This document shows, one piece after another, positions 1,852-63,551 of a stretch of 64,000 nt of DNA; the first letter of the stretch is position 1; every line of letters begins with the position of its first letter. The position numbers and the translations under genes are program-made. The DNA comes from Octopus vulgaris (Eukaryota), in assembly GCA_951406725.2 (NCBI GenBank), contig OX597819.1:88846001-88910000 (forward strand), read 5' to 3'. The notes below the pieces were generated by a model. That model did not search any database. It had not been told where the DNA came from and saw nothing but the letters and a program-made list of their open reading frames with translations.

Positions 1852-2057
1852 TATATTCATACATACAAATCAGTGTTGGCATGTTTACATCCCATGTAAC
1901 TTAGCAGTTTGACAAAAGAGACTGATAGCGTAAGTACGAGGCTTACAAAAAGAAACAAAAGAATAAGTTCTGGGGTTGATCCGTTTGATTAAAATTGTAA
2001 ATTATATATATAAGTAAATAAATGGAGTTGAATGCAGGTGTTATTCAAATTCTTTTA

Positions 2058-2143
2058 CTTTCAACATATGTTTCGAAGACAACATTAGTTTTATTCCAAA
2101 GGAATAAATGGTGTAAAATAATGTAATCTTCTCATCAGGAAAG
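2058..2143 (-). ncRNA. Type I hammerhead ribozyme motif with GUU triplet and extended stem II
   Basis: Minus strand: CUUUC-CUGAUGA-GAAGA...UCUUC-GAAA-CAUAUG-UU-GAAAG. Stem II is extended by ACAUUA/UAAUGU and UUUAUUCC/GGAAUAAA. It lies in a segment of about 185 bp (2013-2197) between (TA)n tracts. Confidence 0.82.
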
Positions 2144-2415
2144 AAAGAGAATGTATCTTAACAACAAGACATTATAACAATTTTGATGACTGCAGTCATA
2201 TATATATATATATTTATTTGAAATTTTGATTAATTAAAAATCATTTCTTGTTCAAGTATGGTAGCCTGAATTTCTAAGTTCATTTAAGATTAACTGTTGA
2301 TAGAGTTTCCTGTATACATACATGGCTATAGATCCCAAAATATATATGCCCAGTCAAAATTATTTTGAAAATATATAAGCACAGAAATAGACAGGCAGCT
2401 GAGATATTGACCAGT

Positions 2416-2453
<38 letters not shown>

Positions 2454-3246
2454 ACAAGTGTATACAGAGTAAGCAGACAGTGGCATCCTTTATGCAGTTG
2501 TTCAACTTGTTAGAAACTGCTGCTAAATCTACTACAAGAAGGAAGAACACATATGATAATGTAATCCACTGTCTGAAACACAAAACTTTTCACAGCTGTA
2601 ATGTATTTGGCTAAAGGTCTGCTTTGTCAGGGTTGTGCTAGGACTAACAACAACTATATATTCAAAGGTCTATATGTTTCAGAAACTGGACTGTGGTCAT
2701 GTTGGGGCATCTCCTTGAAGGGTTGTAGACAATTAAATCAACCTCAGTACTTATTATATCAGTCTCTTTTGCTGAACTAAGTAACAAGGACTTAAACCAA
2801 TACCAGTTACCAATTGTATATGCTTGTCTATACAATGGGCTTCTACACAATTTCCATCAATTGAATTTACTTGCAAGGCAGTGGTTAGCCTGGGGCTATA
2901 TTAGAAGATAATATAGTCAGTCCCACTATGCACCCAAGGTGGCGCATAGTGGGACTGAACCTGAAACCACATGGCTGAAAACCAAGCTTCTTAACCTCAC
3001 AACCATACTGCACCTATACGTACACTAATCTAAACAGTTACATCTTACAAGGGCCAGAGGATTTAAACACACACACACACAAACATAATTGCATATATGT
3101 GTGTATTACTTAAGTCAGAACACTGACATGCATATACATACATATCTAAACAAACCAAAACATAAAACTCAGTTCTCATATGCTACGAAAAAAAAATGTA
3201 ATTTTCTTTTTTAAGAATAAAATAAATAGACAAAGAAGAGACCTAC

Positions 3247-3360
3247 CACAGTTTTTCTCATCTGAGTTATCCCCGCAGTCGTTTTCCTGATCACACAGCC
3301 AAATTTTAGGAATGCAGTTACCATTTTTGCACTTGATGTCATTTTTAATGCATTCATCAG
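3247..3360 (-). CDS. LRP4: Internal coding exon, LDL-receptor class A repeat (LRP4-like gene)
   Basis: Minus strand reads ttatctttcag|CT ... G|gtaggt; 114 nt, phase 1-1; (S)[37 protein letters not shown]. Confidence 0.9.
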
Positions 3361-3472
3361 CTGAAAGATAATGGCATTTTCATTACTGCACAAAAAAACA
3401 AAAACAAAAAAAAAACACAACACCACTAGGCAAGAAATGGAAACAAAATTGAAGGAAGAGGGAAAAATAATA

Positions 3473-3508
<36 letters not shown>

Positions 3509-4363
3509 GTGTTGTTTTCTTTATCAACCACTAAGGATTGACAAAAACATCAAGGATGGTACAGGATGATACAGAGTGGTTTTACATAAAAGCAAATACA
3601 AAAAAGTATAATAGCAGAAAGAAAGAAATGGAAAAAAATTCAAACGAGGAATAATTTCCTATAGGTATGGGAGACCTCCTAGGGTGCCAATGGAAAGCCC
3701 ACAAAGCCATGGTCACTCTGACCACTAGGGCAAGTGCTCTTCCCCAGTTGTCGCCCTCTGTTCTCCAGGTGCAGCAACAACAATAATGATAATATTCCTT
3801 TCTACTTAAAGGCACAAGGCCTTAAATTTTGGAGGAGGAGTCTAGTCGAGTATATCAACCCCAGTATTTCACTGGTACTTAATTTGTCAACCTCAGCAGA
3901 AACAACAACAACAATAATAATAATGATAATAATAACAACAATAATAATGATGTCAAATTTTGGCACAAGGCCAGCAATTCTGGAAGAAGAGATAAGTTAA
4001 TTACATCAATCTCAGTGTTCAACTGGTACTTATTTTATTGACCCCAAAAGGATGAAAGACAAAGTCGACCATGGCGGAATGGATGAAACGCCACTAAGAA
4101 TTTTTGACCAGCATTCTATCAGCATTCTACTGACTTGAACATAATAATAATTGTTTCTGATATAAACATAAGGCTGGAAATTTGGGGTAGGGGGATAATC
4201 AATTACATTGAGTCAAGGGCTCAACTGGTACTTATTTTATTGGCTCTGAAAGGATGAAAGACAAAGTTGACTCCAGCAGAATTACAATTCAGTTGGAACA
4301 AGTTGGAACAAAGACTACAAAATATTTTTCTGACACGTTAATGATTCTGCTAACGCATTGCCC

Positions 4364-4391
4364 TAATAATAATAATAATAATAAAAATAAA

Positions 4392-4437
<46 letters not shown>

Positions 4438-5838: not shown

Positions 5839-6921
5839 TCTAACATTAAAGAGTTAAATCTACTACCCTAAAACACAACAAATATCATTACAGGATTTGA
5901 TTCAAAGTCAAAGATATTTAGCTGTATTGATACCATCTTTTCAGCTGAACACAAGGCTCAATGGTCATATGGGTTTAACTATTTCTCAATACAACAGGGT
6001 GTGATCTACCTTTTATGTTTTACTTATTTCAGTCATTGAATTATGACCATGCTGGGGGCACTTCCTTAAAGGGTTTAGTTAGGGAGATATGTCTTCTATT
6101 TCAGACAGGCCAAAATACATACAGGTTCTCTCATAACATTCTGTCATGAGTACTTGATAAACAGTTGAGTGGAGGCACATGGCCAGTGGAGGCACATGGC
6201 CTAGTGGTTAGAGCAGTGGACTCGCAGTCGAGGGATCACAGGTTCGAATCTCAGACTGAGTGATGTGTGTGTTTATGAGTGAAACACCTAAGCTCCATGC
6301 AGCTCTGGCAGAAAGTAATGGCGAACTTCTGCTGACTCTTTTGCCACAACTTTCTCTCACTCTTTCCTCCTGCATCTTGCAGCTCACCTGCAATGGACTG
6401 GCGCCCCGTCCAGGTGAGGAATCTATACGCCAAGGAAACTGGGAAACCAGCCCTAATGAGCCAGGTGTGGTTCGAGAAGGAACAAACTCGATAAACAGTT
6501 GGTTAATCATAATGCTATTGTTGAAATCTAAGACACAAGACACATCAAACAAAATGAACTACAAAACTTCAATTATTCCTCTGAGTACCATAAAAAAGAT
6601 ATAGAAAAATATGTGTACACATGTGAGTGTATATCTGTGTCTCCTTGTCTTGACATCATATGTAATTGATTGCATTGTCATACAAGCAGTGTCGTTCATT
6701 TTTAGTATTCTGTGAGAACATGTTTTGCCATGGAGCAATATCACATTGCTAGTAAACAGATGAGGGTTGGTGACAGGAAGGGTATCCAGCTATAGAATAT
6801 CTTCCTCAATAAACTCCATCTAACCCATGCAAGTAGGAAAAAGTGGAGGTTAAAATGATGGTAATGATATCATTCATCACTCACAACAAAAGAAATAGAG
6901 TAATAGAAAGAGATTACTCAC

Positions 6922-7035
6922 AACATCGCTCATCAGAGCCATCTTTGCAGTCTTTGGCATCATCACATCTCCATTGAGACTTTATACAGTGACCGTCATC
7001 ACATCGGAACTCATCTTCGGTGCAATTCTTGGGAG
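6922..7035 (-). CDS. LRP4: Internal coding exon, LDL-receptor class A repeat (LRP4-like gene)
   Basis: Minus strand reads cttttgcaaaatag|CT ... T|gtgagt; 114 nt, phase 1-1; (P)[37 protein letters not shown]; splices in frame to both neighbours. PP-x2-C-x-EDEF and the short SDE-x-C ending resemble LRP4 repeat 3 as recalled. Confidence 0.9.
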
Positions 7036-8787: not shown

Positions 8788-8818
<31 letters not shown>

Positions 8819-17754: not shown

Positions 17755-17796
<42 letters not shown>

Positions 17797-18459: not shown

Positions 18460-18576
18460 GGCAGTTCAGTTCGTCGCTTTTATCCCCACAGTCATCATCA
18501 CCATCACACTGCCATGTTTTTCGAATACATTTGTGGTTTGTGCAGGTGAATTGGTTACTAGAACACGTCGAATACA
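18460..18576 (-). CDS. LRP4: Internal coding exon, LDL-receptor class A repeat (LRP4-like gene; most upstream exon visible)
   Basis: Minus strand reads ttttcag|TG ... C|gtgagt; 117 nt, phase 1-1; translates [38 protein letters not shown] with 6 Cys, W-x-C-D and D-C-x-D-x-S-D-E. The exon is certain; the LRP4 name comes from recalled similarity to LRP4 repeat 2 and is tentative. Confidence 0.9.
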
Positions 18577-23505: not shown

Positions 23506-23552
<47 letters not shown>

Positions 23553-23650
23553 GTTAATCCAAACAAGAAAACACAGAAAAAAAACACAGCAACGCGAGGA
23601 CGTGGAACAATTAAAGTATTATTTGACGCTCAGGAAAGAAGGGAAGGAGG

Positions 23651-23685
23651 GTTTAACGTTTCAAGCAGAGCTCTTCGTCGGAAAC
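23651..23685 (-). ncRNA. Minimal, variant hammerhead motif within a Penelope-like fragment (about 23552-23776)
   Basis: Minus strand: GUUU-CCGACGA-A-GAGC-UCU-GCUU-GAAA-CG-UU-AAAC. The core has a U4C change; the segment is bounded by (TA)n on both sides. Confidence 0.55.
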
Positions 23686-23774
23686 AAGGAGAAGGAAAGA
23701 TCCCAAGAAGGGAAGACAGAGGAAAAAAATATTTTTGCTGGTGGTGCTCAAGAGATCACATGTTGAAAGAACAG

Positions 23775-23806
<32 letters not shown>

Positions 23807-25348
23807 CATATATCATTATCATCATCACCTCATTTAACATCTGTTGTCCATGCTGGCATGGGTTGGATGGTTTGATCAGGCCTGGTAAGATGAAGGGCTG
23901 CACCAGACTCCAGTCTGATTTGGCATGGTTTCTACGGCTGAATGCCCTTCCTAACGTCAACCACTCTGAGAGTGTAATGAGTGCTTTTACATGCCACCAG
24001 CACAAGTGCCAGTTGCATGACACCAGTATCTGCCGTGACTACAATTTGACTCGGCATGATGGGTCTTCTACTAAAGCACAGCATATTGACAAAGGTCTTG
24101 GTCATTTATCATTGCATGCGCGAGACCCAATGCTTGAAAGGAGCTTTTCACGTGCCATCAGCATGGATGCTAGTTATGTGATATATGCACAAACAATGGG
24201 CTTCCATGCAATTTCTGTCTTCCAAATGTACTCACAAGGTATTAGTCAACCTGGAGCTATAGTAGAAAATACTTGCCCAAGGTACCCCACAGTGGACTGA
24301 ACCTGAAATCATATGGTTTCAAAGGAAAGTTCTTAACCACACAGCTATGCCAACATGTATTCTTTTATTCTTTTACTTGTTTCAGTCTTTGACTGCAGCC
24401 ATGCTGGAGCACCACCTTTAGTCGAACAAACTGACCTCAGTACTAAGCCTAGTACTTATTCTATTAGTCTCTTTTGCCGAACGGCTAAGTTACGGGGATG
24501 TAAACACACCAGCATCGGTTGTCAAGCGATGGGGGTGGGGAACAAAGACACAAATACACACACACATATATACATGACAGGCTTCTTTCAGTTTCCATCT
24601 ACCAAATCCACTCAAAAGGCTTTGGTCGGCCCGAGGCTATAGTAGAAGACACTTGCCCAAGGTGCTATGCAGTAGAACTGAACCCAGAACCATGTGGTTG
24701 GGAAGCAAGCTTTTTACCACACAGCTATACCTACATGTATGTGTATTATTTTTTTTTATATTCCTTTTACGTATCCCTTCACAGTTTACCAGTGGCTGTA
24801 GTACAAACTAAAGGAATGAGCCCCTATACTATCTCTAAAAATTTACTACTGACAAGAATCTTGATATATCAGCTATTAAAATCAGGCCTGAAAGAAGGAT
24901 GTTGCATGAAAGCAAACATCTTCAGTGTGATAGACAGCTGTAACACTTAAAATAGTTCAGCCATGTCAGACACATGAAACAATGCCAGCGGTGGTGTTTC
25001 CATGTTTTATTTATCAAGCTCATATATATCCTTGGCACTAGGCACTTCTTCATGACAAGATGTTTCTAGACATTCAAAGGTAAATAAAGTAAGAAAGATG
25101 GGGAAAAAAAAAATCTTGAGAGTGCCAATAACATGAGTCTTTATAAATATGTTAAGGGATAATTTACTGAAAGTGATAGACAACAAATTCTTAATTTAAA
25201 TTTCTCATTTAGGAGAGGAAAACAAAAAAGAAATATCTAGTGGCAATTATTAGCAACTCTCAAATAAAAGGTGAAGTAATTTCAAGGAATTGAGAATTAA
25301 TCTCTCAAGGGAAGTAAAACCTTATTTCCATTTACAGGCAAGAGACAA

Positions 25349-25388
25349 CTAAAGACATGTTTCAACCTATTAGATCTCATCAATATAG
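25349..25388 (-). ncRNA. Degenerate minimal hammerhead motif
   Basis: Minus strand: CUAUA-UUGAUGA-GAUC-UAAUA-GGUU-GAAA-CAUG-UC-UUUAG. It has a C3U change and one stem I mismatch but a palindromic stem III and a GUC triplet. Confidence 0.5.
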
Positions 25389-27146
25389 TATAAACAACTC
25401 AACCATGCTAGATCAACTGACAGAGATTTTTACCTAAAGTATATATAAAAAAAAAGTAATGAATAATTTTTGGTCAGTATAATTATCATTACAAAATGAA
25501 ATCTCTCTGAATGGTATTGTTCAGTAGCAATCTTTAATTAAACCAGTGGATTGATGGATAATAGTGACAGATAACAAGAAGCAAATACTGGTTGTCAAGA
25601 TGAATAATGTGTCAAGTGAGAAAAATATTTGTAATTTATGAACTGAAAAAAGAGCAAAAGGAGACAGCAATACAAGACAGGACCTTACATAGATAGGCAC
25701 AAGCCTGACTATGTGGTTAAGAAGCTCGCTTTGCAAAGATGTGGTTCTGGGTTTATGTCCCCGTAACTTAGCAGTTTGGCAAAACAGACCAATAGAATAA
25801 GTACTAGGCTTACAAAGAATAAGTCCTGGGGTCGATTTGCTCGACTAAAGGCAGTGCTCTAGCATGGCCGCAGTCAAATGACTGAAACAAGTAAAAGAGT
25901 ATGTGTACCTTTGTGTCTGTGTTTACCCTACCACTACTGTTTTGATAACTGGTATTGGTTTGTTTACATCCCCACAACATAACAGTTTGGCAAAAAAACA
26001 AAACTGACAGAATATGTACCTCATTTAAAAATAAGTACTGAGGTGATTTATTCAACTTCAAAGTAGTGCCCAGCATGATTACAGTTCAATGACCGAAACA
26101 AGTAAGAAATTAAAGATATATACAAATATATTTTGCACTTGTAGGCAACTAGTAGGCACAGATGTTTAACAACTATACCACACACAGAAACAAAATTAGA
26201 TCGAAAATACTAAAGAATAATACTTGCATACTCTATCAAATTTCTCACAAAAATAGAAGATTAATCATGGAAGCCAAGCTTATATTGTAACACAATGCCA
26301 AATCAAACACACAAGCAACACGCACACATCAGAAAATGTAGCTACATACATGCAAAATTTAAGTGAGAAAGCCTACATAAATTTGATCATAACAAGTCTA
26401 CAAAAATTTGACCAGTGTATAAGAAGCAACACAAATGTCAAATGTATTTCATTTCTTTATAAAAAGACTGTGAATGTCTAGAAACAAAGAACATGGATTA
26501 AGGAACTTTGTGGTTCTAGATTAATTACAATAAATTGATATGAAAGTATGAAAATAAAACTTGTAATAAAAATGATAAAACTGGAACATAGTCACGTCTT
26601 TAATGAAACGGATCAAAGTAAAGAGGATATGAATATATATTATTCTTTTGTTCTTTTACTTATTTTAATCACTTTGACTGTGGCCATGCTGGAGCACCAT
26701 AATTCTTTTTTTTTTTTTAACAGTATATCTTGAGGCAAATAAAGCTATAAATAAAAGTGTGTAAATACAGGATTAAAAAAATCTTCGGATAAAAAAAAAA
26801 AGTTATGAGGCTGCCAGTAAGGTTTGAAACCCCCCACCCCCTATCCTTTGATCCTTTGTAAACATGGGAAGTGTTCTGCCATAGGACCAAAGTAATCATT
26901 CAAATTTCTCACTCCATTTTAGAAACTTTATTCATACCATTGAGAATAGTATGTTGGTGATGCCAAAAGAATTTATACACTTCGAAGTTTATTAGTCAGT
27001 CCAGACTCCACTTATGCAGATACTCTAGTAATAATTTGAAGTAGTTTGTTATATTTGACTTAAGTTACAAATTCTAGTATTGCACACCGCTTCTTAGTGT
27101 AACATGAAATACATACACACACACAAATGTATGTATGTATATATAT

Positions 27147-27463: not shown

Positions 27464-27612
27464 CACACACACACACATATATATATACACAATATATACA
27501 CATATATATACATACATATAATCATCATCATCATTATCATCGTTTAACGTCTGCTTTCCATGCTAGCATGGGTTGGACGAAAATATATACATATATATAT
27601 ATATATATATAG

Positions 27613-28567
27613 TACTAAGCAATTAAGGGTTTAGCAACGAATTGCCTCACCACACACCGAATTTAGAAATAGCAGTCAAAGAGTTATAGCTATTCTTTCT
27701 ACTAAAAGGAGATCTCAGTAAAAACACAGCACTTGAAAGGCAAACACAGACAGGCAAGAGAGAATGAAATGACGGCAATCTATCATACAATTTTAAGTCA
27801 CCTACGGACGTACGTTTCGAAATCAAGTTTTAGGAAAGCATAAGAATTAGATAATTCTACCTTACCCAAACTTCTTTTCTCATCAGCGTAGTATACTACA
27901 ATTATGAATAATTGTATATTAAATTTTGAGATACTAGAAGGCACCATCTCAACTCAGTGTCAGAGCGAGCTAAAGCATTACCAGTACCACGAAATTCAAA
28001 GTGAGAATGAAAGTTTGTGTCACCAGCCCCCTTCCACCCGCGTGTAGCCAAGACAAGATGCTGTGGTCATTTACTGGGATAAAATATGGTTATCAGTAAC
28101 AATAAAGGGTGAAATTAATTAATTTGGAATAATTATTCATTACACCAACTAGATTTCGGCATGTAAAAGCCTCATTCGAGGAAAATTTAAGTAATACTAA
28201 GCAATTAAGGGTTTAGCAACGAATTGCCTCACCACACACCGAATTTAGAAATAGCAGTCAAAGAGTTATAGCTATTCTTTCTACTAAAAGGGAGATCTCA
28301 GTAAAAACACAGCACTTGAAAGGCAAACACAGACAGGCAAGAGAGAATGAAATGACGGCAATCTATCATACAATTTTAAGTAGAAAGAATAGCTATAACT
28401 CTTTGACTGCTATTTCTAAATTCGGTGTGTGGTGAGGCAATTCGTTGCTAAACCCTTAATTGCTTAGTATTACTTAAATTTTCCTCGAATGAGGCTTTTA
28501 CATGCCGAAATCTACTTGGTGTAATTAATAATTATTCCAAATTAATTAATTTCACCCTTTATTGTTA

Positions 28568-28573
<6 letters not shown>
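27613..28573 (-). mobile_element. Non-coding hammerhead-bearing element (Penelope pLTR or retrozyme-like), about 1.3 monomers plus an inverted terminal copy
   Basis: Direct repeats 27613-27798 and 28195-28381 (period 582); inverted repeat 28091-28285 vs 28379-28573; (TA)n on both sides; no ORF of 60 aa or more inside. Confidence 0.8.
27802..27891 (-). ncRNA. Type I hammerhead ribozyme with intact core and GUC cleavage triplet
   Basis: Minus strand: CUACG-CUGAUGA-GAAA[long stem II]UUUC-GAAA-CGUACG-UC-CGUAG. Stem I is CUACG/CGUAG and stem III is the palindrome ACGUACGU. Confidence 0.88.
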
Positions 28574-28610
<37 letters not shown>

Positions 28611-28611
28611 C

Positions 28612-34949: not shown

Positions 34950-34991
<42 letters not shown>

Positions 34992-36638: not shown

Positions 36639-36683
<45 letters not shown>
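36274..36683. repeat. TG-rich minisatellite (ggatgcatgtgtgt units) followed by (TA)n
   Basis: Read directly; about 100 bp shorter in the duplicate at 45342-45647. Confidence 0.9.
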
Positions 36684-36687
<4 letters not shown>

Positions 36688-37260: not shown

Positions 37261-37293
<33 letters not shown>

Positions 37294-38700: not shown

Positions 38701-38733
<33 letters not shown>

Positions 38734-42460: not shown

Positions 42461-43100
42461 GTGACTACAAAAACATGATATTATTAGTACTAAAATAACA
42501 AACCATTATTTTGCCTTTAACAAATCACTACCTCAATTACTCATATTTAATTCTGCCACCACCACCACAACCAAAATAATACTAACACATCACAAATAAT
42601 ACCAAAATTGAAATAACAGTGGAGATTCTATTATTACTACTAAGATAATAATATCAACACTTCACAAATTACACTAATATAACAACACCGAGTACGTTGC
42701 TACCACCATTGAGATAATAATTCTGACATAGTCACTAATGGTAAATATAACAGCAACAATGAGCTAACAATGGTGGCTCTCTCTATGATTGATTCATCCG
42801 CTAGAAATAGCAGACAAATTTTCCCCTTACATCATACTCCCTTTCTCCACCATCTTAACACACACATATGCAAAAAAAAAAAAAAAAAAAAAGGAAGAGA
42901 AAGAAAAGATGTTCGATAATACAGTTCAAGACATAGAGCGGTTGAATAAGAAATGGTATATATTCATAGCTGGAATGTCTTTGATCACAGGTCTATTTGA
43001 TTAAAGCTGACTTGAGGCAAAACAACAACAACAACAACAGAGACATCACCACTGGAACTATTATTACTATTATTATTATTATTATTATTATAACAACAAC

Positions 43101-43200
43101 NNNNNNNNNNNNNNNNNNNNNNNNNNNNNNNNNNNNNNNNNNNNNNNNNNNNNNNNNNNNNNNNNNNNNNNNNNNNNNNNNNNNNNNNNNNNNNNNNNNN
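43101..43200. other. Assembly gap (100 N)
   Basis: Run of N characters. Confidence 1.
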
Positions 43201-44007
43201 TGTTGAGCTGCCTGGCCCGCCAACAAACATATTATCAATACAATATTCTCTTTCCTATAAATTTCATATTAAAAAATATGATGATGATGATCATCATCAT
43301 CATCAGATATGATGGACGATGGTAATGATGATGAAAGTTTTAAGGATGATGATGATGATGATGATGATAACGGTGGTGGTTGTGGTGGTGGTAGTGGTGG
43401 TGATACTGATGATTGGTCTGTTGGTGCTTTGCTAGAGAAGATCAAAGTAAAAATAAAATGTGGCTTCTCTTATTAATAAATGAATTGGTGTGTCCTCATG
43501 AAAGAGAGCTTATATGTGGTCTGATTGGAAAATTCTGTTTTCCAATCAAACCATATATTCTTTATCTTTCTTTTTCTTCTTTTTTTCCTTAATATGAAAT
43601 ATGCTGCTATCACCATACTTTTTATATGGGCTAATCTGGCTTTTGGTGATCGAAACTAATCATAACATCATTAGTAAACACACTGCTAGCAACAACCTCA
43701 AACTCTATTGAAAACAAATGAGTCATTTGAACCAACAAGAAGAGCCATGATAGAGTTGCTCAACTTCCAAGAAATGGCAGCTGCACATTGCTTAAATCAT
43801 ACAACCTTTACTTTATCAGAAATAAAAAAATAAATACAAGTCTAGTCATGGCTATGTGGTAAGAAGCATGCTTCCCAAACACATGGTTCCAGGTTCAGTC
43901 CCACAGCATGGCACCTTGGGCAAGTGTCTTCTACCATAGCCTTGGGCTGACCAAAACATGGTGAGTGGATTTAGTAGATTTGGTAGACAGAAACTGAAAG
44001 ACGCTTG

Positions 44008-44057
<50 letters not shown>

Positions 44058-44716
44058 CTGGATCATCCCATAAATAATATGGATTTTTAAAAATATTTCT
44101 TTTATTTTTCAAAATTCAGATAAAAAGTTCTTTTTTAATCTAAAATATTCTCCCCTTCATTTTCTACAATGCTCTTCCATCTATCTGGTAGACTTGCAAG
44201 GCCCCTCTTCCAAAATTCATCTGTCCGTTCCAAAAATACTCCTCCAGTACTGTTCTGAACTCATCTACAGAATTCATATTTTTTCCAGCTAAATGATTTT
44301 GAAGACTGCAGAATAAATGATTATCAGATGGGGCAATGTCTGACGAATACGATGGGTGGAGCATCGTTTCCCATTCAAACTGCTCCAGCCTTTGGAATGT
44401 CATCCTCATTGTATGTAGCCGAGCATTATCCTGATGGAAGAACACCTTTTGTCTTGAAACCAAAGACAGTCATTTTTCTTCAAGCACTGCCTTAAACCGA
44501 TCAAGCTGCTTGCAGTAGATCTCCTTTGTTATCATTTGGTTTGGGTTTAAAAGTTCAAAGTGGACTAAACTTTCCATATCCTACCAAACAGATAACATCT
44601 TATGCAGGTGAAGACCTTCTTTAGCCAGGAGTGTCAGTGTTTCTCCTTTCCCTACCCATGTCTTTGGTGCTTGACATTTTTACAGAGAATCCATTTCTCA
44701 TCACCAGTCACTATTT
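44058..44716 (-). mobile_element. Mariner (DD34D) relic, duplicate copy
   Basis: Near-identical to 34992-35650 as part of the 9 kb duplication. Confidence 0.85.
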
Positions 44717-45599
44717 GGAGCTACCCCTAAGTATCAAGCCAATTACCATTTTATTCTCCAACAATCACTATTTTGAGTCACCTTGGATTCACCATTTGAC
44801 AAGTGTGATACCTGATGTGGCCAATTGATTCTTCAGGATCTTGATCATGCACCTCTTACAGCTCACTCACTTGGAATCAGGCAGGATACAGTGACTGGTT
44901 GCATTAGTCCAGGTTGGATGACATCTAGAGGGTTCTGACCAACCTGCATTGGCAATCCTGGGTAAGGGGATTGTTGAGCTGATGAATGCACCCTTTGGAT
45001 ATGTGGTACCGTCTACTTTAAAACATACTGGTACAAGCTACAGCCACTGGATTGGGACAGGGCCTCCTCCATGCCTTTGCTATAGTGAGTACACCCTCAT
45101 GGTACCACCCTCATTAAAAACAAAGAAATGATTTCTTTTTGGTAAAGTAGCCTAATGCCACACAGTGAGAATGAGTCTGAAACCAAATAGTTGGGAAAAG
45201 AACTTAACCACATGACCATATAAATGATTTACCTTTCTCAGACTTTTTCTTTGTACTAGGAAAAACGAAGACAGACACATGTGCACACACAGACACACGG
45301 ATTATTTTGTATCTAATCAAAATTTGAGTATTCATGAAGTTTGTGTGTGTGTATACATGTGTGAAGGAGCATGTACATGTATCTGTGGGAGTGTGCATGT
45401 GTAAGTGTTGGTGCATATATGTGTGTGTGGGCACTTGTGTGGGGGGATGCATGTGTGTGTAGGGTGCATGTGTGTGTGAGAGGGTGGATCTGTGTGGGAG
45501 TTGCATGTGTGTGTGGGTAGGTGGGTAGTTGGGTCTGTGTGTGTGTGAGTGTGTGTGCACATGTGTGTAAGTCTTAATGCACAAACAGAAGGAAGAATA

Positions 45600-45647
<48 letters not shown>

Positions 45648-46223
45648 GTAGAACCTATTCATTCATGGCGGCTCATTCATTCTATCACTACCCAGCGCTT
45701 ATGTCGTTCTGTCACCTGGAGGATTCCTAACAGCAAGAAAACACTGAGAAGTAACTACAACAACAGTGCACTGAGAGTACTATTTCTTTTGTTTTTATTA
45801 CCACCACATGTGTGTATGTGTATGTGTGTGTATGCATATGTCTATGTGAAAAAATGAGAAAAAGAAAAAAGAGAGAGAGAAAGCACAGGGTTAGTACTCC
45901 TATTGATTAGTGGTGTTGTAGGTGACAAAAGACATTTCTGCAAACAGTGTACTGCAGTTCACTACTGCAGTACAGACTGCTAATTTCACCTTCAATATGT
46001 CTCTGCAACTGAATATGTTAATAAATTTTTGTTATTTGTAGCATAATTCACAGCTTGTAAATAGCATAGGGACTGCTACATGAAAGCTTGTCAATGCTAC
46101 AAGCGAAATCTCAACTACCACCAACTCAAAAACTATATCACCAACAATAACGATTATGATTTCTTTTATTCGCCACAAGGGTGGCAGTTAAAAGAGACTG
46201 TACAAGAACAAATTACAAAAGCT

Positions 46224-46254
<31 letters not shown>

Positions 46255-47923
46255 GTGGGGTTATGCATAATTGACTGTAGATATAAAACAAATAGGTATA
46301 GAAAACAAAAAGTAGTAACATGTCTATCATCATCAACATATAATGTTTCATTTTTGCTATGCTGGTGTAGGTAGGATGGTTTGACAGAAGACTGCACCAA
46401 GCTCCAATGTCTGTTTTGATATGATATCTGCTCTTTCCTAATGCCAATCATAATATTAACAATAATAATAATAATAATGATAATAATTCTTTCTACTATA
46501 GGCACAAGGCCTGAAATTTTGGGGGAGCGGCCAGTCAATTAGATCAACCCCAGTACACAATTGGTACTTAATTTATGGGCCCCAAAAGGATGAAAGGCAA
46601 AGTGGACTCTGGCAGAATTTGAACTCAGAACTGCCAACTCACTGCCTTAATTAATAATAACAACAGTTTCAAATTTTGATACAAGGCCAGCAATTTTGGG
46701 GGAGGATGTCAGTTGATTACACTGACCCAAATGCTTGAAAGGCAAAGCTGACTTCAGCTGAATTTGAATTCAGAACATAAACATGGACAAAATCTGGCTA
46801 AGCATTTTGCCTGGCATGCTAATGGTTCTGCCAGCTCACCGCCTTATTGATAATAATAATGATTTCAAATTTTGGCACAAGGCCAGCAAGTTCAGGGGAG
46901 GAAACCAGTTGATTACATCAACCTCAGTGCTCAACTGGTACTTATTTTATCAAAGCATGAAAGGTAAAGTTGACCTTGGTGGAATTTGAACTCAGAACAA
47001 AAAGATGGATGAAATGCCACTAAGCACACAGCCCAGCATGCTAATGGTTCTGTCGGGTCACTACCTTGTTCATAATAATAACAATAATCCTTTCTACTGT
47101 AAGCACAAATTTGTGCTGCAAAGTAGCTGAGCTCCTTTCGAGTGTTGGGCCTCATGGAGGTGAGGTAGCTGAGTTCCTTTTGAGTGTGGGGCCTCATGGA
47201 GGCAATGACCAAGACCTTTGGCATTATGTTGTGCTTGAGAAGAAGACCCATCAAGCCAAGCAAAATCGCAGTTGTGGAAGTTACCGGTGTCATGTAAATG
47301 ACATTTGTTCTGGTGGCATGTTAAAGCATCCATTATACTCTCGAAGTAGTTAGCATTAGGAAGGGCATCTGGCTGTAGAAAACCATGCCAAATCAGACTG
47401 GAGCCTGGTGCAGCTATCCAGCATGCCAGCTCGTCCAACCCATGCCAGTATGGACATCATCATCATCATCACCATCGTCGTTTAGCGTCCGTTTTCCATG
47501 CTAGCATGGGTTGGACGGTTCTACTGGGGTCTGTGAAGCCAGAAGGCTTCATCAGGCCCAGTCAAATCTGGCAGTGTTTCTACGGCTGGATGCCCTTCCT
47601 AACGCCAACCACTCCGTGAGTGTAGTGGGTGCTTTTTACATGCCACCCGCACAGGTGCCAGACAGAGCTGGCAAACGGCCACGAACGGATGGTGCTTTTT
47701 ATGTGCCACCGGCACAACGGATATTAAATGGTGATGGTGATGATGATGATGATATATGTGACAGATTTCTACCCAGTTTTGGTCTACCCAATTCACTCAC
47801 AAGACATTGGTCAGTAGGTGGTTATAGTAGAAGACACTTGCCCAAGGTGCCAGAAAATGGGTCTGAACCCAAGACCACATTGTTGGGAAGCAAGTTCTCA
47901 ACCACACAGCCAATGCCTGCACC

Positions 47924-47963
<40 letters not shown>

Positions 47964-50900
47964 AAATGAAGATGAGAATGAAGCCCATGGAGCACTAACA
48001 CAGCAGAGTGTCATATACTCTTTCTGCTAATCTGGATGTGAAAAGAGATGACCTCAGAGATGTAATCATTATTCCCATCTTCAAGAAAGGTTGCAATTCA
48101 GACTGGAAGGCCAATAGACTTAGTACTAAATGTATACTGGAGTTAATTCAATAAACTATGTTCCCACCTGACATATCGCTGGCTTTATATCTAAATTTTA
48201 AATTATTAGTAGCATCATTACTAATACGCCAACATAATATGAAATAAATTTGGTATTCCAGAAACATATGCTCAAAATGCATATTGTGTGGCTGTAGCAT
48301 CAAACTCCAAGAAGAAAAATCCCATTAGAATGTTTAACTCTGGTAGTCATAAGATTGAAAAGACATAGCTTGTTGATATTTCAAAGTGGAACCTTAATTC
48401 ACGCAGGGTTGAGAAAATTTTTGATATTAGTTTATCGATAATTCTTTAATGAATGTAAAGCTAATGCTAAAATGCAAAGTTATTCAATCCCTAGAAATCA
48501 AGACATTTTTATATACGACTATAAACTCTTTTTTTCCTTTCTTGTTATCACAGTGACTAGATGTGACATCCGCAAACTCTTCTGCATTAAAACCAACCAT
48601 ATCAGGCCCAAATATTCTACTTGCTTTATCTTCAAACCAGTCAGACCCTGTCTCTCATACCTACCCTATAATGTCATTCTAAAGATATACAACCACATCA
48701 TAAAAATATTGAAGCTACAAGATAATGCATGGTTATTTTAAAACAACATGAATAACTAAGCATTACATTTGACAGACTAATTTGAATGCTAAAGGGTTAA
48801 GGATCTTTAAAACTGCATTGCCAATTCAATACAATATTCTCAAGAACTAGAAGCATATCCTTTAAAGTTTTACTCCATAGAGCAAGAGACTCTCTTTTCT
48901 CTCTATTACTTGTTTCAGTCATTTGACTGCGGCCATGCTGGAGCACCGCCTTTAGTCAAGCAAATTGACCCCAGGACTTATTCTTTGTAAGCCTAGTACT
49001 TATTCTATCGGTCTCTTTTGCCGAACTGCTAAGTTACAGGGACATAAACACACCAGCATCCGTTGTCAAGCAGTGTTGGGGGGACAAACACAGATACACA
49101 AACACACACACACATATATATACATATATACGACAAGCTTCTTTCAGTTTCCGTCTACCAAATCCACTCACAAGGCTTTGGTCGGCCCGAGGCTATAGTA
49201 GAAGACACTTGCCCAAGGTGCCACGCAGTGGGACTGAACCCAGAACCATGTGGTTGGTAAGCAAGCTACTTACCACACAGCCACTCCTGCTCCTATATAT
49301 ATAATTTTAAATGTCTAATTGTTTCAGAATAGTAATAGTGTTTAACAAAATAATTTCTCAAACTAGTAACCTCATCTTTAATAATGTATGCTTACTATAT
49401 TTACAATGCACTCCATTCTGATTAACCTCCAGTTGTTATAAAGGTGTTCTGTTCCTGGATGCATAACAGTTGGTTTTGAAATAAAGGTCCTTGGTTTAAA
49501 CCTACTCTGATACACATCAGATAATGATTGGAAATGAAATTGGTTAAAACTCAGTGCAGATGTAAAAATACACTCTAAAGATGAAGCTTATAACTTGCAA
49601 ATAATCTTAACCCAATACATGCTCAAAGTATATAAATATACTGCATAATTCTTTAATTATGATCATTATTATTCACAATAAAAACAGTTATTTCTCACAC
49701 TGATTACAAGGTCTTCAATTTTTACAAGAAAGACATCACTGTCTGAAGCAGCCTTGGTCCCTTTCGTTTATCTTAAAAGGATGGAAATCAAAAAAGCAAA
49801 GCTGACCCCTTTACGGTTTGAACTTAGAACGACAAGGGATAATGTTAAATATACTTTTTCCGTTTTTGCTGAGTTCAGACAATTGGCTGTAACCACATAG
49901 AGGAACTACCATCAAAAAGTGAGCTGATGCTTATGGCTTAAATAAAAAAGCATGTACTCATCTGGTCATACCATGCTGTTTTGACTCAATCAGACAGACT
50001 CTATCAATACAAAATTCTTTCATGCTGCAAATGGGGAAGCAATCTGCTATATGATTGGCTGTCATAGTTACCCAACCTACTGAGAATCACTGCAGCAATA
50101 TTGTTTTAAATATTGACACAAGGCCAACAATTTTAGTGGGAGGGTTAGTTGATTGCATCATCCCCAGTCCTAAAATGGTAATTATTCTATTGAACTTGAA
50201 AGGATGAAAAGCAATGTTGACCTCAGTGAAATTTGAACTCTGAATGTAAAAAGTTGGAAAAAACACTGCAAGGCTTGTTGTCCAACACTCTAACAATTCT
50301 GCCAACTTGCCACAGCTATAATAATTATAGAGATTTCTAGAATAGGTCCAAGATAATAAATTCACAGGGAAGGAAAGGGATCTAAATAATTTTTTAGGTT
50401 CAGCACTTCATCAGTGTTTATTTTACCAACTGTGAGGATGAAATGCAAAGATGAAACCCTGTGGCAATATTTGAAGTACAAGGATGTAATAAAGCACCAC
50501 AAGACATTTTGTCTGATGCTCTACTAATTAAGCCATTTACAACACTTTTGGTTATAAGAATAATTCTTTCTAATTTTGACACAAGGCCATTAATATTGAC
50601 ATTGATGATGATGATTAACCCCAGCACTTGACTATGTATTTTAATGAACCCAGAAGAATGAAAAGCAAAGTTGACTCAGGTGGAATTTGAACTCAAAATG
50701 TTTAACAGCATTTCTTCTGACTCATTATGCTAATGATTCTACTAGCTCACTGACTGATGATAATAATAATAATAATTATCCTTTCTACAATAAGCACAAG
50801 ACCTGAAATTTGGGGGAAGGGATAGTCAATTTTATTGGGCCCCAGTACTCAACTGGTACTTATTTTATTGACCCTGAAAGGATGAAAGGAAGAGTCAACC

Positions 50901-51194
50901 CTGGCAGCATTTGAACTCAGAACATGACGATGGACAAAATGATTTAGTCAGCTTACCACCTTAATAATAATAATGATGGTTTCAAATTTTGGCACAAAAC
51001 CAGCAACTTCTGGGGTGGGGTAAGTTGTTTACATCAACCCCCAGCACTCAACTGGTACTTATTTTAATGACATCAAAATGATGAAAGGAAAAGTTGACCT
51101 CAGCAGAATTTGAACTCAGAATGTGAAGACAGACAAAATGCCACTAAGTATGTTGCCTGGCACGCTAACAATTCTGCCAGCTCACCACCATAAC

Positions 51195-51227
<33 letters not shown>

Positions 51228-54200
51228 TAGAAGAATAAGAATTTTGTTTATTTAAGATAAAGGCCAGCAATGGTGTATGAGAAGCAATGTTGACCATGGC
51301 AAGATTTGAACTCAGAACATAAAGAGACCAAACTAAATATCACAAAGCATTTTACCCAACACTTTAATGATTCTGCCAATTCACAGCCCTAAAACCTGGT
51401 GTTACCTCTGGCCTTGCCAGTTCTTGTCAAGCTGTCCAACCCATGCCAGCATGAAAAACAGACATTAAATGATGATGATGTGATTCAAGCACAGGCACAA
51501 GGCCCAAAGTTTGGTTGTGGGAGTGGGTGTGGGTGGGTTAGTCCAGTAAATTGCCCCTAATATTTGACTCTGGTGGGGTTTGAACTCAAAAGAACTGTAA
51601 CTAAATACCACAAGGTATTTTTCTTTTTTACCATCATTCTTATGATTCTGCCAATAACAATAATAATAGTGACTACAAAAACATGATATTATTAGTACTA
51701 AAATAACAAACCATTATTTTGCCTTTAACAAATCACTACCTCAATTACTCATATTTAATTCTGCCACCACCACCACAACCAAAATAATACTAACACATCA
51801 CAAATAATACCAAAATTGAAATAACAGTGGAGATTCTATTATTACTACTAAGATAATAATATCAACACTTCACAAATTACACTAATATAACAACACCGAG
51901 TACGTTGCTACCACCATTGAGATAATAATTCTGACATAGTCACTAATGGTAAATATAACAGCAACAATGAGCTAACAATGGTGGCTCTCTCTATGATTGA
52001 TTCATCCGCTAGAAATAGCAGACAAATTTTCCCCTTACATCATACTCCCTTTCTCCACCATCTTAACACACACATATGCAAAAAAAAAAAAAAAAAAAAA
52101 GGAAGAGAAAGAAAAGATGTTCGATAATACAGTTCAAGACATAGAGCGGTTGAATAAGAAATGGTATATATTCATAGCTGGAATGTCTTTGATCACAGGT
52201 CTATTTGATTAAAGCTGACTTGAGGCAAAACAACAACAACAACAACAACAGAGACATCACTACTGGAACTATTATTACTATTATTATTATTATTATAACA
52301 ACAACGTAGAGCATTAATATCGTTAATATGTTCACGCCACAATTAGCACAGTCGCCAAGCCACCCCTGCCAACATTGTTACGAATGGTTCAAAATTAAAT
52401 TAACCATCATCACATTTAATGGAAAGTATATTACCTTGGTTGCCATGCTACAGAAAGCTGACACCTTATAGTTTATCGGGGTAGCATTTACTACACCCTA
52501 CAATGATACATACTGTTCTTGTTATTAATAAAGTAGTATCTATTGCACTTGATACTCTCATTGTTTGTTGGAAGTATTATAAGGTAATTGCTTTAAAAAA
52601 TAGCACACACACACACACACATATCAGCTTTGTATGTGTAATAGAGAGTGTGTGTGTGAGAGAGAGAAAGAGAAAGTGTGTGTGTACAGGTATATATTTC
52701 TTTATTGCCCACAAGGGGCTAAATATAGAGGAGACAAACAAGGACAGACAAACGGATTAAGTTGATTACATCGACCCCAGTGCGTAACTGGTACTTTATT
52801 TATCAACCCTGAAAGGATGAAAGGCAAAGTCGACCTCGGCGGAATTTGAACTCAGAACGTAACGACAGACGAAATACGGCTACGCATTTCGCCCGGCATG
52901 CTAACGTTTCTGAGCCATATGGTTGAACAGTTTGTTTCCCAACCACATGGTTAAGGGTTCAATCCCACAGCATGGTACTTTGAGCAAGTGTCTTCAGCTA
53001 TAGCCCACGGTTGTCGACTTTGCCTTTCATCCTTTCGGAGTCGATTAAATAAGTACCAGTTACACACTGGAGTCGATATAATCAACTTAATCCGTTTGTC
53101 TGTCCTTGTTTGTCCTCTCTGTGTTTAGCCCTTTGTGGGTAGTAAAGAAATAGGTATTTCGTCTGCCGCTACGTTCTGAGTTCAAATTCTGCGGAGGTCA
53201 ACTTTGCCTTTCATCCTTTCGGGGTCGATTAAATAAGTACCAGTTACACACTGGGGTCGATATAATCGACTTAATCCGTTTGTCTGTCCTTGTTTGCCCT
53301 CTCTGTGTTTAGCCCTTTGTGGGTAGTAAAGAAATAGGTTAACCAAAAACTCGTTAGTAGATCTAGTAGATGGAAACTGGAAGAAGTCCCTTGTAAATGC
53401 ATGTGTGTGTGTGTGTGTTTGTGTGTGTTTATATGTGCAGGTATGTACGCATGTGTGTGTATGTGTGGGGGGAATATGTTTGTGTTCATGTCACTTTGCT
53501 TTGATAACAAGTGACAGTTGTAAACGAGTGTGACTGTCATATAAGAAGTGTTTCTCATTTCCAATCTTCCATGAAAAACATGTCCAGCAAGGGTGGAATA
53601 TTGCCTTGCTTAGCAACAGGTAAGTGTTGGTGACAGGAAGGGCATCTGGTTGTAAACAAAAAATCTGTCTCAATGAATTCCATCTGACCCATGCAAGCAT
53701 GGAAATGTGGATGTTAAAATGATGATGATGATGGTGGTGTGTGTGCATGTGCGCACGCATGTGTGTTTGTGTGTGTGTGCATGGTTAAGAAGTTTGCTTC
53801 ACATACACTTTGGTTTCAGTTTTGATCCCTCTCGGAGGCACCGTGGACAAGAGTCTTCTATAACCTAAGACTGAACTAATACTTTGTGAATGAACATTGG
53901 AAGATAGAAACACAGAAGCCCATTGTCTGTGTATGTGTGTGTGTTGTAGAAAGGAGTGCAAATGTGTATGTGTGCATGTATTTGTCTTCATATGGACATT
54001 GGTTGCAGCATGTTTATGCAGTTTATACTGAGGACCAACATGGGGAATTACAACCGTGTTTCGTGGTCTGCTACCACAACAGCTCCTTTATAGGATCCAG
54101 TTAGCTCAAGACATCATCAGGAGGAACCATGTCCGGTTTCGGCCCCTACTCCTCTACCATTTTGACGTGGCGGGGCTCACCCTTTCGGAGGTGTCTTCAG

Positions 54201-59181: not shown

Positions 59182-59214
<33 letters not shown>

Positions 59215-60519: not shown

Positions 60520-61100
60520 AGAGGTAGGTAGGAAGTAATGAAATTGAGGAGATATAGGAGCATGTCTACTTAGGGCACACAGTGAATATGAGTTGAGATA
60601 TGGATGCTGAAATCTCAAAGAGAATAAGGGCAGGTTGGAAGGCTTTTAAATCAATAAAGGATATACTTAAAACAAAGCTAGACAATATGCCAGACTCTTC
60701 AATAGAACCAGCCTAGCTGTGCTCTTATACATAAATAAGACATAGGCAACTAAAAAGAGGACAGAATCATTGACAGGCTATGATGCATAGGACCATGGAA
60801 AGATCCATACTAGGAATATCATGACAAGAACATATTCAAAATGAGATAATTTGAAAATGGAGTGGAGTGAATGATGTGATCACAGAATACCAAAAGCACA
60901 AGTTCTGAAGGGCTGGACGTGTTGCAAAGTTCACAGACAACATGTGGATCTGTGCAGTTACCAAGTGGTATCCAAGAGATAGGAAAAGGCTGCTTGGAAG
61001 GCCTCTGTGATGATGGGAAGATAATTTAATTAAGCAATTTGGGTCAAAATGGAAAAGAATGATGCAAACAAGACAAAATAGGAAGTGCATTGTGACCATC
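60520..61100 (+). mobile_element. RTE LINE 3' fragment
   Basis: Broken frames give YLG ... AEISKRIRAGWKAF ... MERSILGIS ... AGRVAKFTDNMW ... WYPRDRKRLLGRP. Confidence 0.8.
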
Positions 61101-61131
61101 TGATGGTCTGGTTAATACTGTGAAAAAACTA

Positions 61132-61486
61132 CAGTAATACCTCACTTTATGGGGACCTGCTTTGTGAGACCCCAAGCATCTACAAGTGATGGTGTGCACA
61201 AGTCTAGTACAAGTGAAAGTGATTCAGAAAACAATAATAATAATAATTTTTATCATAAATGATCTTGAAACTCCTTTTATTTCGCATAAAATATTCTTTA
61301 CATTCTACTGTTGTTTTATTGCCATTTATTTACGAGTATTATAAATTTTATAAGTAAAATATTTTTCTGGGAATAAATTACGATTTATAACATTGCTACT
61401 ATTGGAAATTATTGCTTTGCTCTATGAGTTTTTGCTTCACGAGCAGTCTCCGGGAATAAATTAACTCATATATCGAGGTTTTACTG
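61132..61486. mobile_element. pogo/Tigger-type MITE
   Basis: TA|CAGTAATACCTC ... GAGGTTTTACTG|TA. Confidence 0.72.
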
Positions 61487-61761
61487 TATATATTATTCTA
61501 AAACTAATAATAATCGTTTTTACTAAAGGCACAAGGCCTGAAATTTATGGGGAGGGGGACTAGTCGATTACATCAGCACCAATGTTTCCACTGGTACTTA
61601 TTTATTGACCCCAAAAGGATGATAGGCAAAGCTGACCTCGATGGAATTTGAACTCAGAAAGTAAAGACGGATGAAATGCTGCTAAGCATTTTACCTGATG
61701 TGCTAATGATTCTGCCAGTGTGCCACCTTAACTAATAATGATGATAATAATGATGATAATA

Positions 61762-61799
<38 letters not shown>

Positions 61800-63102
61800 C
61801 CTTTCTACTATAGGCACAAGGCCTTTAATTTTTTGGGAAGGGGACTAGTTGATTACATCAACCCCAGTGTTCCACTGGTACTTTATTTATCAACCCTGAA
61901 AAGATGAAAGCAAAGTCAAGTTTGGTGGAATTAAACCTCTGCTGAGGTTAACTTTGCATTTCATCCTTTTAGGGTTGATAAAATAAGCACCAGTGAAGTA
62001 CTGGGATCAATATAATCGACTAACCCTTCCCCTGAACTTGCTGGCCTTGTGCCAAAATTTGAAATCAATAATAATAATAATAATAAGAAGAATAATAATG
62101 ATAATAATAATAATAATAATATTTGTAAAGAAAATCCCTCAAAGAAATTGAGTTCATTCTGTCAAAAGAAGCATTAAAAAAAAAACCTCACCCACTTATA
62201 TACAAGTAGTACAACAAGACAAAAATAACCAGATTCTATAACAGAAATTTATCATTCTGCTACTGCATTGTAAACATTTTTTACAGGCAGTAGTGTCACC
62301 ACACATACATGTGCTTGTGTGTGTGTGTTACACGTAAACATAACTTTTTATCTTTTCCTTGTTTCATTCATAGGATTGCAGCCATGCTGGGGCACCACCT
62401 CAAAGGGTTTTAGCCAAATACATCAACCCCAGGACTTATTTTGTAAGTCTGGCACTTATTTCAGTAATCTCTTTTGCAGAACTGCTAGATTACAGGGATA
62501 TAAACCAACACCAGTTGTCAATCAATGAGGGAGAACAAACTCAAGCATACACATGACAGGGTTCCACATAGTTTCTGCCTACTAAATTCACTCCCAAGAC
62601 AATGGTCAGACCAGGGCTATAGTATGATACAAACTCGAAGTGCAACACAGTGGGACTGAACCCAAAACCACATGGTTGCAAAATCTGCTTGTTAACCATA
62701 CAGCTATGCCTACATACATATTTGCATAAATATATTTATATGATGGACTCTCCTATCGAAGACAATGTATGAGTGTTCAGCTTTTGCCAGATGACCTGCA
62801 CAAATGATTTGATTTGTTTATAGTGATCAAATGTATGTGCCATACATTAGCTCACTCTCTCTCCATCAAATCGACATTGCCTGAACAGATGCACAGTGTA
62901 CCCATGCATCAAGGTCATCATGATTGCAAAGCAATGTAAGATCAAGTGCTTTGCTCAAGAGTGCAACACCCTAACCACTAAGCCATGCATCCTCACATAT
63001 CTATCTATTTATATATATATATATATCATGCTAGCATGGAAAACGGACGCTAAATGATGATATATATATAATCAAAATAAGCAACAAGGATATCTAGAGG
63101 TA

Positions 63103-63196
63103 ATGCAGTACAATCGTTTCATGCGACTCAATTTAATTGAACAATGCAATCATTTCATTACATCAATTTAAAACGTAGAGCAATCTTCAGCTGCAC
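63103..63196 (-). ncRNA. Type I hammerhead ribozyme motif (left arm of inverted repeat)
   Basis: Minus strand: GUGCAG-CUGAAGA-UUGC...GCAU-GAAA-CGAUUG-UA-CUGCAU; GUA triplet; U-U mismatch at the base of stem II. Confidence 0.72.
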
Positions 63197-63302
63197 AAAG
63201 ACATAGAATTTAATTAAATAAGGACATATTAGTATAATTTTGGAGATTTTGAGTAAAATTATACCAATATGCCCTTCTAATTTAATTAAATTCTATGTCT
63301 TT

Positions 63303-63396
63303 GTGCAGCTGATGATTGCTCTACATTTTAAATTGATGTAATGAAATGATTGCATTGTTCAATTAAATTGAGTCACATGAAATGATCGTACTACAT
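63303..63396 (+). ncRNA. Type I hammerhead ribozyme motif, partly decayed (right arm of inverted repeat)
   Basis: Plus strand: GUGCAG-CUGAUGA-UUGC...ACAU-GAAA-UGAUCG-UA-CUACAU; same family as the left arm with a few transitions. Confidence 0.65.
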
Positions 63397-63551
63397 TACC
63401 TCTGGATATCCTTGTTGCTTATTTTGATTTTAATCACCTTATTTTGAAATTGTATGGATAATACCATGCTAAATTCTGGTGCCTCAACTTAAGTATCATA
63501 TTCATCTGAATCTAAATTTTACATACACACATATACACATAAATACACATA

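Follow-up and report, generated by a model that had tools for sequence, protein, structure and literature searches.

The 64,000-nucleotide stretch of the Octopus vulgaris genome analysed here (contig OX597819.1, positions 88,846,001 to 88,910,000; hereafter the window) lies in a gene on the minus strand that is, judged by its sequence, LRP4-like. The introns of this gene contain five insertions, A to E, with six hammerhead ribozyme motifs. The motifs are probably the 3'-end remnants of five repeat families that arrived as independent insertions. Two of the families were traced to open reading frames (ORFs) of Penelope-like elements (PLEs), the other three were likely mobilised by PLEs, and three of the five insertions carry a predicted type I hammerhead in which stem II has grown to a hairpin of 57-63 nt.

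Hammerhead motifs and their repeat families

A first-pass annotation of the window had proposed six hammerhead folds, and all six were found at their places. A strict type I descriptor matches at 2063-2138 and 27807-27886 (both minus strand) and nowhere in 40 local dinucleotide shuffles. With relaxed rules, 23655-23681 and 63109-63190 (both minus strand) are found as well, and family homology adds 25347-25392 (minus strand) and 63309-63390 (plus strand). The type I order, i.e. core CUGANGA followed by GAAA and an NUH triplet, is present in A, D and E, and the core columns are invariant in the alignments. The elements had been called unrelated, each with its own stem III palindrome; BLAST indeed shows no similarity among the five hammerhead regions, and the palindromes CAUAUG, CG, CAUG, CGUACG and CGAUCG (the last in its family form) were confirmed. 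As proposed, four of the five insertions end at (TA)n, the exception being C. The stem II domains had been described as branched and roughly 55-65 nt long; the length holds (57, 61 and 63 nt), the branching does not, as all four window copies form a single interrupted hairpin. The folding z-scores of domain II are -4.7 for A, -3.1 for D and -0.8 and -0.5 for the two copies of E. An Rfam scan of the window returned no hammerhead; since it also missed short-domain-II copies at five other loci, this miss is not specific to the long arm. We note that several window copies have drifted from their families: A has the triplet GUU, B two stem II wobbles, C a change of C3 to U and the plus-strand copy of E a change of C15.2 to U.

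Genome-wide counts refer throughout to the 2.8-Gb assembly, and the candidate totals given per family are first-look totals of which only 40 per family were scored. Family A (2013..2194, minus strand; 2,434 candidates, 40 scored at 93-96%) is the 5'-truncated 3' end of a Hydra-like PLE and has (TA)n on both flanks. Its type I hammerhead (2063..2138, minus strand) consists of the core CUGAUGA, a 57-nt domain II hairpin and the stem III palindrome CAUAUG, with the predicted cut 3' of position 2063; the triplet is GUU in this copy and GUC in 52 out of 58 distinct family motifs. In longer copies an ORF with the endonuclease domain GIY-YIG ends about 280 nt before the hammerhead (21 out of 30 loci). 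Pfam did not recognise this ORF. Its reverse transcriptase (RT) is 27% identical to a Hydra-type protein, it has the motif DKT (SDKT in L150) and, in the endonuclease, CxxC and CxH (CNIC, CKH), and its copies lie at (TA)n. For one repeat protein, the nearest homologue in the databases carries an Octopus sinensis annotation. Hydra-clade PLEs including Hydra-1_Obim (PMC8557442) have the same RT and C-terminal GIY-YIG with DKT, CxxC and CxH, and share the hammerhead near the 3' end, the (TA)n targets, the inverted 5' pieces and the one-sided tail. They differ in domain II, which measures 52-57 nt in A as against a 7-bp stem and an 8-nt loop in Hydra-1_oBim, and in the tails, which are about 100-155 nt in the octopus and 30-40 nt in the Hydra clade (PMC8557442). 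The A-clan ORF (L116-L155) has an Asn-rich stretch at the position of the CxCX5C linker of Hydra elements, and its copies are nonetheless found at (TA)n.

The assembly also contains a young Hydra-type PLE family with open frames of 727 aa, many copies of which are almost identical (L326-L355, e.g. G000:C4:132440744-132444527). Its 3' untranslated region is about 1.2 kb long, and its hammerhead is short, domain II measuring 10 nt and loop III 5 nt. A metagenome scan for Hydra relatives of other species found no relative.

Family B (23553..23774, minus strand; 2,600 candidates, 95-99%) is the 5'-truncated 3' end of a Neptune-type PLE and lies between the TA tracts 23507-23552 and 23775-23813. 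Its minimal hammerhead (23655..23681, minus strand) has the core CCGACGA, an extra A after A9, a 4-bp stem II, the stem III palindrome AACGUU and the triplet GUU. The partner ORF, of the form RT-CX4CxxC-GIY-YIG, lies about 3.4 kb upstream of the hammerhead in 3 out of 5 long loci (CSRSRCNTC in L112, L114 and L115). Thus B has the CX2-5CxxC linker that marks the Neptune clade between the RT and the C-terminal GIY-YIG, a class call made from motifs. In the same three loci the roughly 3.4 kb between ORF and hammerhead is CA-rich, low-complexity 3' sequence. B resembles the minimal PLE hammerheads (PMC4209133) in the extra nucleotide after A9, the G10.1-C11.1 pair, the palindromic 15.2-16.2 positions and the short helix I; unlike them, its young subfamily has C at position 4. 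The canonical CUGANGA core is absent from this subfamily, and CTGA occurs in some older relatives. The young subfamily has spread widely despite the C at core position 4. Helix II of the minimal PLE hammerheads is at most 7-8 bp (PMC4209133), whereas A, D and E combine a tetraloop stem III with a far longer domain II.

Family D (main body 27610..28381, minus strand; 1,737 candidates, 97-99%) consists of 1.3 units of a non-coding tandem unit and ends at unit position +198 at the TA tract 27583-27611. Its type I hammerhead (27807..27886, minus strand) has the core CUGAUGA, a 61-nt domain II hairpin, the stem III palindrome CGUACG and the triplet GUC; stem I is 5 bp here and 6 bp in the family. 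An inverted 5' piece of the same insertion (28375..28573, plus strand) covers unit positions 101-299 with a tail of about 100 nt, lacks the hammerhead and ends at the TA tract 28571-28607. The unit has a 583-bp period, 36% GC and a longest ATG-initiated ORF of 49 aa, and runs of up to 4.4 units occur. No RNA record is listed as containing D, which says nothing on its expression. D fits the tandem non-LTR retrozymes: one type I hammerhead per unit, no ORF and low GC, as in the low-GC, non-coding tandem units of metazoans (PMC7229834; bioRxiv 10.64898/2026.07.22.740005). It departs from them in that the 583-nt unit exceeds the retrozyme circles of 170-400 nt and in its domain II of 61 nt. The sample of the bioRxiv study, in the portion covered, is without molluscs.

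The main body of family E (63240..63520, plus strand, i.e. antisense to the host; 2,140 candidates, 91-95%) contains a hammerhead at 63309-63390 (plus strand) with a 63-nt domain II, a U.U at the base of stem II, the family palindrome CGAUCG and the triplet GUA. An inverted 5' piece of E (63067..63241, minus strand) contains a second copy (63109-63190), also with a U.U at the base of stem II, and ends at a short TA tract. The two copies are thus the product of a single insertion event, the main body of which is antisense to the host. In L356 and L357, E reaches at least 1.7 kb further upstream and includes an internal direct repeat, now decayed, whose copies are about 850 bp apart; this upstream sequence has no recognisable ORF and no protein match. 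An apparent antisense Hydra RT remnant there was considered and rejected, since in the profile search reversed controls reached scores at least as good. Family F (CAAUUG, long-arm) is related to E and has three copies in the host gene, at window-relative positions -6417, -6162 and 68191 (L156, L161), two of which are on the sense strand 74 kb apart.

Family C (25127..25501, minus strand; 52 candidates) is an old repeat with 65-85% identity to its relatives and no flanking TA tract. Its hammerhead (25347-25392, minus strand) has decayed to TTGATGA, and several relatives retain CTGATGA, a 4-bp stem II and CAUG.

Abundance of the long arm and mode of spread

In A, D and E the side arm is roughly four times as long as usual, and this form occurs tens of thousands of times in the genome. 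The core pattern with a tetraloop and a domain II of 45-75 nt has 39,826 matches (reversed control 1,419), as compared to 8,744 (519) for 9-19 nt, 12,060 (1,408) for 20-44 nt and 10,727 (1,318) for 76-106 nt; these are counts of patterns, not of folded matches, with nested matches counted twice, and the longest class visibly includes other repeats. The length distribution is continuous. It is conspicuous that about 72% of the above-control tetraloop matches have a domain II of at least 45 nt. Compensatory changes in helices I, II and III point to a maintained structure: with the core invariant, changes on both sides were found in 9 out of 27 pairs of the A clan and 11 out of 24 pairs of the E/F clan (10 and 11 aligned sequences, respectively; the D subfamilies were inspected in script only). 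The covariation score was reached by none of 500 shuffles, and in slid controls pairing dropped to 28-51%.

A class with a domain II of 45-100 nt was not found in the literature searched, from which Lunse et al. (2017) and the bioRxiv supplements were outside scope. Five long-arm stem III motifs are absent from the portion covered of the supplement text of Craig et al., where line breaks may hide matches. What appears to be new is the abundant long-armed hammerhead form; already published are hammerheads in PLEs, the palindromic stem III, dimers, the derivation of retrozymes from PLEs and TA targeting.

The anatomy of A, B, D and E is PLE-like, with fixed 3' ends and a one-sided tail, 5' truncation, inverted 5' pieces and partial tandems. 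Inverted family pieces were found upstream at 11 out of 25 A, 13 out of 25 D, 12 out of 20 E and 2 out of 20 B loci. A and E each have two 3' ends, one near and one far, and B has a single 3' end and few inversions. In D the 3' ends, counted from the predicted cut, fall at +190-205 in 30 out of 54 segments and at +292-306 in 15 out of 54, and the 5' ends are scattered. A tract of (TA)5 or longer lies within 300 nt downstream of 37 out of 56 copies, as compared to 17.5% of random positions. Together with the 29 BLAST clusters into which 155 distinct long-arm motifs fall (some singletons may be chance), this enrichment supports the earlier view of a diversified radiation of TA-associated ribozyme retroelements. 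The radiation is one of an already described PLE/retrozyme system: Craig et al. 2021 (PMC8557442) report (TA)n targeting, one-sided tails and 5' copies in inverted orientation for elements of the Hydra, Naiad and Neptune types, and mobilisation of retrozymes by PLEs has been proposed (PMC7229834; Li et al., bioRxiv 10.64898/2026.07.22.740005).

Several observations speak for an origin from PLEs. The hammerhead of A stands about 280 nt behind an ORF with RT and C-terminal GIY-YIG and that of B behind a Neptune-type ORF. The two clusters of 3' ends and the scattered 5' ends of D match the one-sided PLE tail, which is explained by two internal start sites of reverse transcription (PMC11167929), and this supports PLE mobilisation. 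The explanation comes from the Poseidon PLE of the green anole, and D, with ends at +196 and +299, has a tail of the same kind; Poseidon belongs to a different PLE clade, and its compact hammerhead is dispensable for insertion in vitro (PMC11167929).

In the mechanism that we propose, the PLE endonuclease would nick (TA)n DNA and the reverse transcriptase would begin on the element RNA at one or the other of two constant internal positions, as PLE biology suggests; the 3' ends would then be fixed, the 5' truncations scattered and inverted 5' pieces frequent. C, D and E would be mobilised in trans by PLE enzymes. The covariation suggests that the ribozyme is retained by selection in master copies, where it is predicted to release unit-length RNA from tandem transcripts, most likely acting as a dimer via the palindromic stem III. 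The most likely reading of the long arm is that of an extension which is tolerated as long as it stays paired, with length and sequence free, and the solitary copies in introns would most likely be by-products without activity.

Several observations weigh against this account. A partner ORF could be found neither for C, D and E nor upstream of a further 20 long-arm matches, so that the case for PLE mobilisation of these three rests on their architecture. One long-arm hammerhead within a gene span has a Neptune-like endonuclease 684 nt upstream of it; this was dismissed as its partner, as TA tracts lie between the two and other copies are without it. The CxCX5C linker of Hydra elements is absent in 15 out of 15 A copies with that region, and A is therefore called Hydra-like rather than filed as a member of the Hydra clade. 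The 5' ends of D are not enriched at the predicted cut (4 out of 54 within 15 nt, about 3 expected). Among 30 consecutive genome matches, 24 fold as a single hairpin and 21 close at the base, but only 16 of these long arms beat their shuffles at z < -1.5. The structures scored for covariation were derived from the same sequences, and the shuffle control ignores kinship. Self-cleavage of A, D and E is still a prediction. Cleavage may even be dispensable, since the young subfamily of B carries C for U4 in 20 out of 20 top loci (window 23675-23681; L051-L070) and mutants of the hammerhead were without effect on insertion in vitro (PMC11167929).

Long arms, palindromes and orientation

The domain II may itself be functional, either as a family-specific docking site for PLE proteins or as a scaffold whose first internal loop makes the contact between loops I and II and so allows cleavage as a monomer; we regard this as possible, though the less likely reading of the arm. 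The prevalence of arms of 45 nt or more among tetraloop matches speaks for it, as do their occurrence in many unrelated families and the covariation of the inner helix. The minimal loop I-loop II tertiary contact consists of U1.7 and a matching A. Both are present in D, where the basal stem measures 4 bp and the A on the 3' side is unpaired. Speaking against the idea, only 4 out of 20 cluster representatives combine U1.7 with the matching A. Moreover, the arms differ freely in length and sequence, within families as well as between them, and the young, intact Hydra family has a domain II of 10 nt.

A broader and equally tentative suggestion is that octopus PLEs and retrozymes form an undescribed long-armed type I class of about 40,000-48,000 copies in dozens of families, in which the domain II of 45-100 nt might act as a family-specific handle (for protein docking or activation) and shared palindromes together with stem I might set the pairing and cutting partners. 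If so, the genome would be a natural library for testing the purpose of PLE hammerheads, the role of which is an open question in the cited literature. Dozens of families with natural swaps of palindrome and stem I are ready constructs for comparing monomers, homodimers and heterodimers. One published core search used a spacer of 7-17 nt (PMC8557442), which most tetraloop-type matches far exceed, so that genome counts of such ribozymes may be too low. In addition, the CxCX5C linker has been associated with (TA)n targeting in Hydra elements (PMC8557442), and the TA-flanked, Hydra-like family A, being without it, provides a test of the proposal that the linker directs such targeting.

The stem III palindrome is under selection, as the tetraloop is palindromic in 18 out of 21 unbiased matches as compared to 20 out of 106 core-less control sites, and this fits cleavage as a dimer. 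A palindromic loop was also seen in 18 out of 30 consecutive genome matches, with 8 more one wobble off, and, by eye, in 83 out of 100 among the matches listed. In computed energies the two-bp stem III is disfavoured in the monomer, at +2.4 kcal/mol, and the 8-bp homoduplex is stable, at -6.4 to -10.3 kcal/mol. Dimer cleavage would thus be plausible, and it has already been proposed in print: palindromic helix III and dimer cleavage are given as general PLE features (Cervera and De la Pena 2014, PMC4209133; summarised in PMC6765202). Dimer-only activity should not be assumed, since a coral retrozyme hammerhead cleaves efficiently as a monomer and invertebrate hammerheads with 2 bp and a tetraloop can do so (PMC7229834).

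The first-pass annotation went further and suggested that each family has its own palindrome, that only like-with-like dimers cleave and that single copies on the sense strand spare the host pre-mRNA. We consider such a code improbable. In its favour, the palindromes are retained through double changes (outer loop pair GC:4, AU:5, GU:2), including positions that are unable to pair within one hairpin. In a strand-swapped dimer stem I also forms between the partners, and between any two of A, D and E neither stem III nor stem I is compatible. Family specificity itself fails: CGUACG, CGAUCG, CAUAUG, CAAUUG and CACGUG each occur in several unrelated families, the CGUACG long-arm pattern alone having 1,238 matches (control 6). 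Across the 29 clusters the recurring loops are GTAC (7), GATC (4) and AATT (4), in a sample enriched for GTAC, and related subfamilies switch between ATAT and ACGT, GATC and AATT, or GTAC and GATC. Two unrelated cluster pairs even match in stem III plus 3-5 bp of stem I. That palindromic helix III and dimer cleavage are general to PLEs, and that monomers of the 2 bp plus tetraloop type can cleave efficiently, also speaks against a family code.

A bias towards the sense strand was not borne out. Among 56 copies in about 0.9 Mb of gene spans, with the gene strand taken from the LDLa exons, 32 were sense and 24 antisense (P=0.35; sense fraction 0.57, 95% confidence interval 0.43-0.70), 24 of the 56 being in inverted pairs, which pulls the ratio towards 50:50. 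The ratio was 27:23 without the window, 18:11 for long arms, 11:10 for strict cores and 20:12 for solitary copies. Sense copies are thus not depleted, which would be compatible with sparing of the transcript by single copies without demonstrating it, and they are not in excess either. All five elements do have a hammerhead on the host sense strand, as had been noted, but for E this is the copy in the inverted 5' piece.

The host gene and neighbouring features

The LDLa exons of the host gene were recognised on the minus strand of the window by PF00057 matches, and one downstream exon has LRP4 as its best PDB match. The exons in question are 18460..18576, supported also by spliced contigs, and the matched parts 6920..7030 and 3248..3355 (all minus strand); element A lies in the intron after the last of these. 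A profile search placed an eighth LDLa exon about 149 kb upstream of the window exons. The exon starting at window position 18576 is spliced directly to an exon 149,221 bp upstream in contigs from RNA-like runs (RNA status being the guess of the tool), with contiguous record positions in X4 and X7 and matching loose ends in X5, X7 and X9. This join puts B, C, D and E into a single intron of 149,221 bp, with 18460..18576 as its acceptor, and A into another, three exons downstream. The elements are thus intronic, as had been proposed; the single intronic region applies to B to E and not to A. About 100 kb of the 149-kb intron (contig positions 88,914,300-89,013,800) has no detected hammerhead copy, and elsewhere there is about 1 per 16 kb.

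The hammerhead cluster in the LRP4-like gene looks ordinary. Amniotes reportedly have conserved intronic hammerheads, and each of the five insertions gives a hammerhead copy on the sense strand of one gene, which could suggest ribozymes adopted by the host as intronic regulators of the LRP4-like transcript; this is very improbable, as each insertion has many counterparts dispersed elsewhere, A, B, C and E carry degrading changes in the window relative to their families, and density and orientation resemble those of other gene spans. Least tenable of all, and practically negligible, is the reading that the motifs arose by chance in AT-rich sequence. Folded as whole motifs, B, C and the two copies of E have z-scores close to zero, and C is weak alone, but a descriptor without palindrome bonus gave 21 matches in 934 kb of fetched gene regions and none in 30 shuffles, the genome-wide excess over the reversed pattern is 28-fold, and there is covariation; a chance origin is already refuted for A, D and E, and family copies of B and C retain the motif.

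Three further features were observed. At L367:3170-3832 an intronless ORF resembling dCMP deaminase (by eye) lies between two direct-repeat segments, each with a long-arm hammerhead. Window positions 34146-43085 and 43201-52296 form a tandem pair of about 9 kb with 97.6-99.5% identity and its junction at a gap of 100 N (43101-43200), which is likely an assembly duplication. Finally, a fragment similar to the reverse transcriptase of long interspersed nuclear elements (LINE; 28565-29044, minus strand), seen by eye and without a Pfam match, touches the TA tract at the far end of D.

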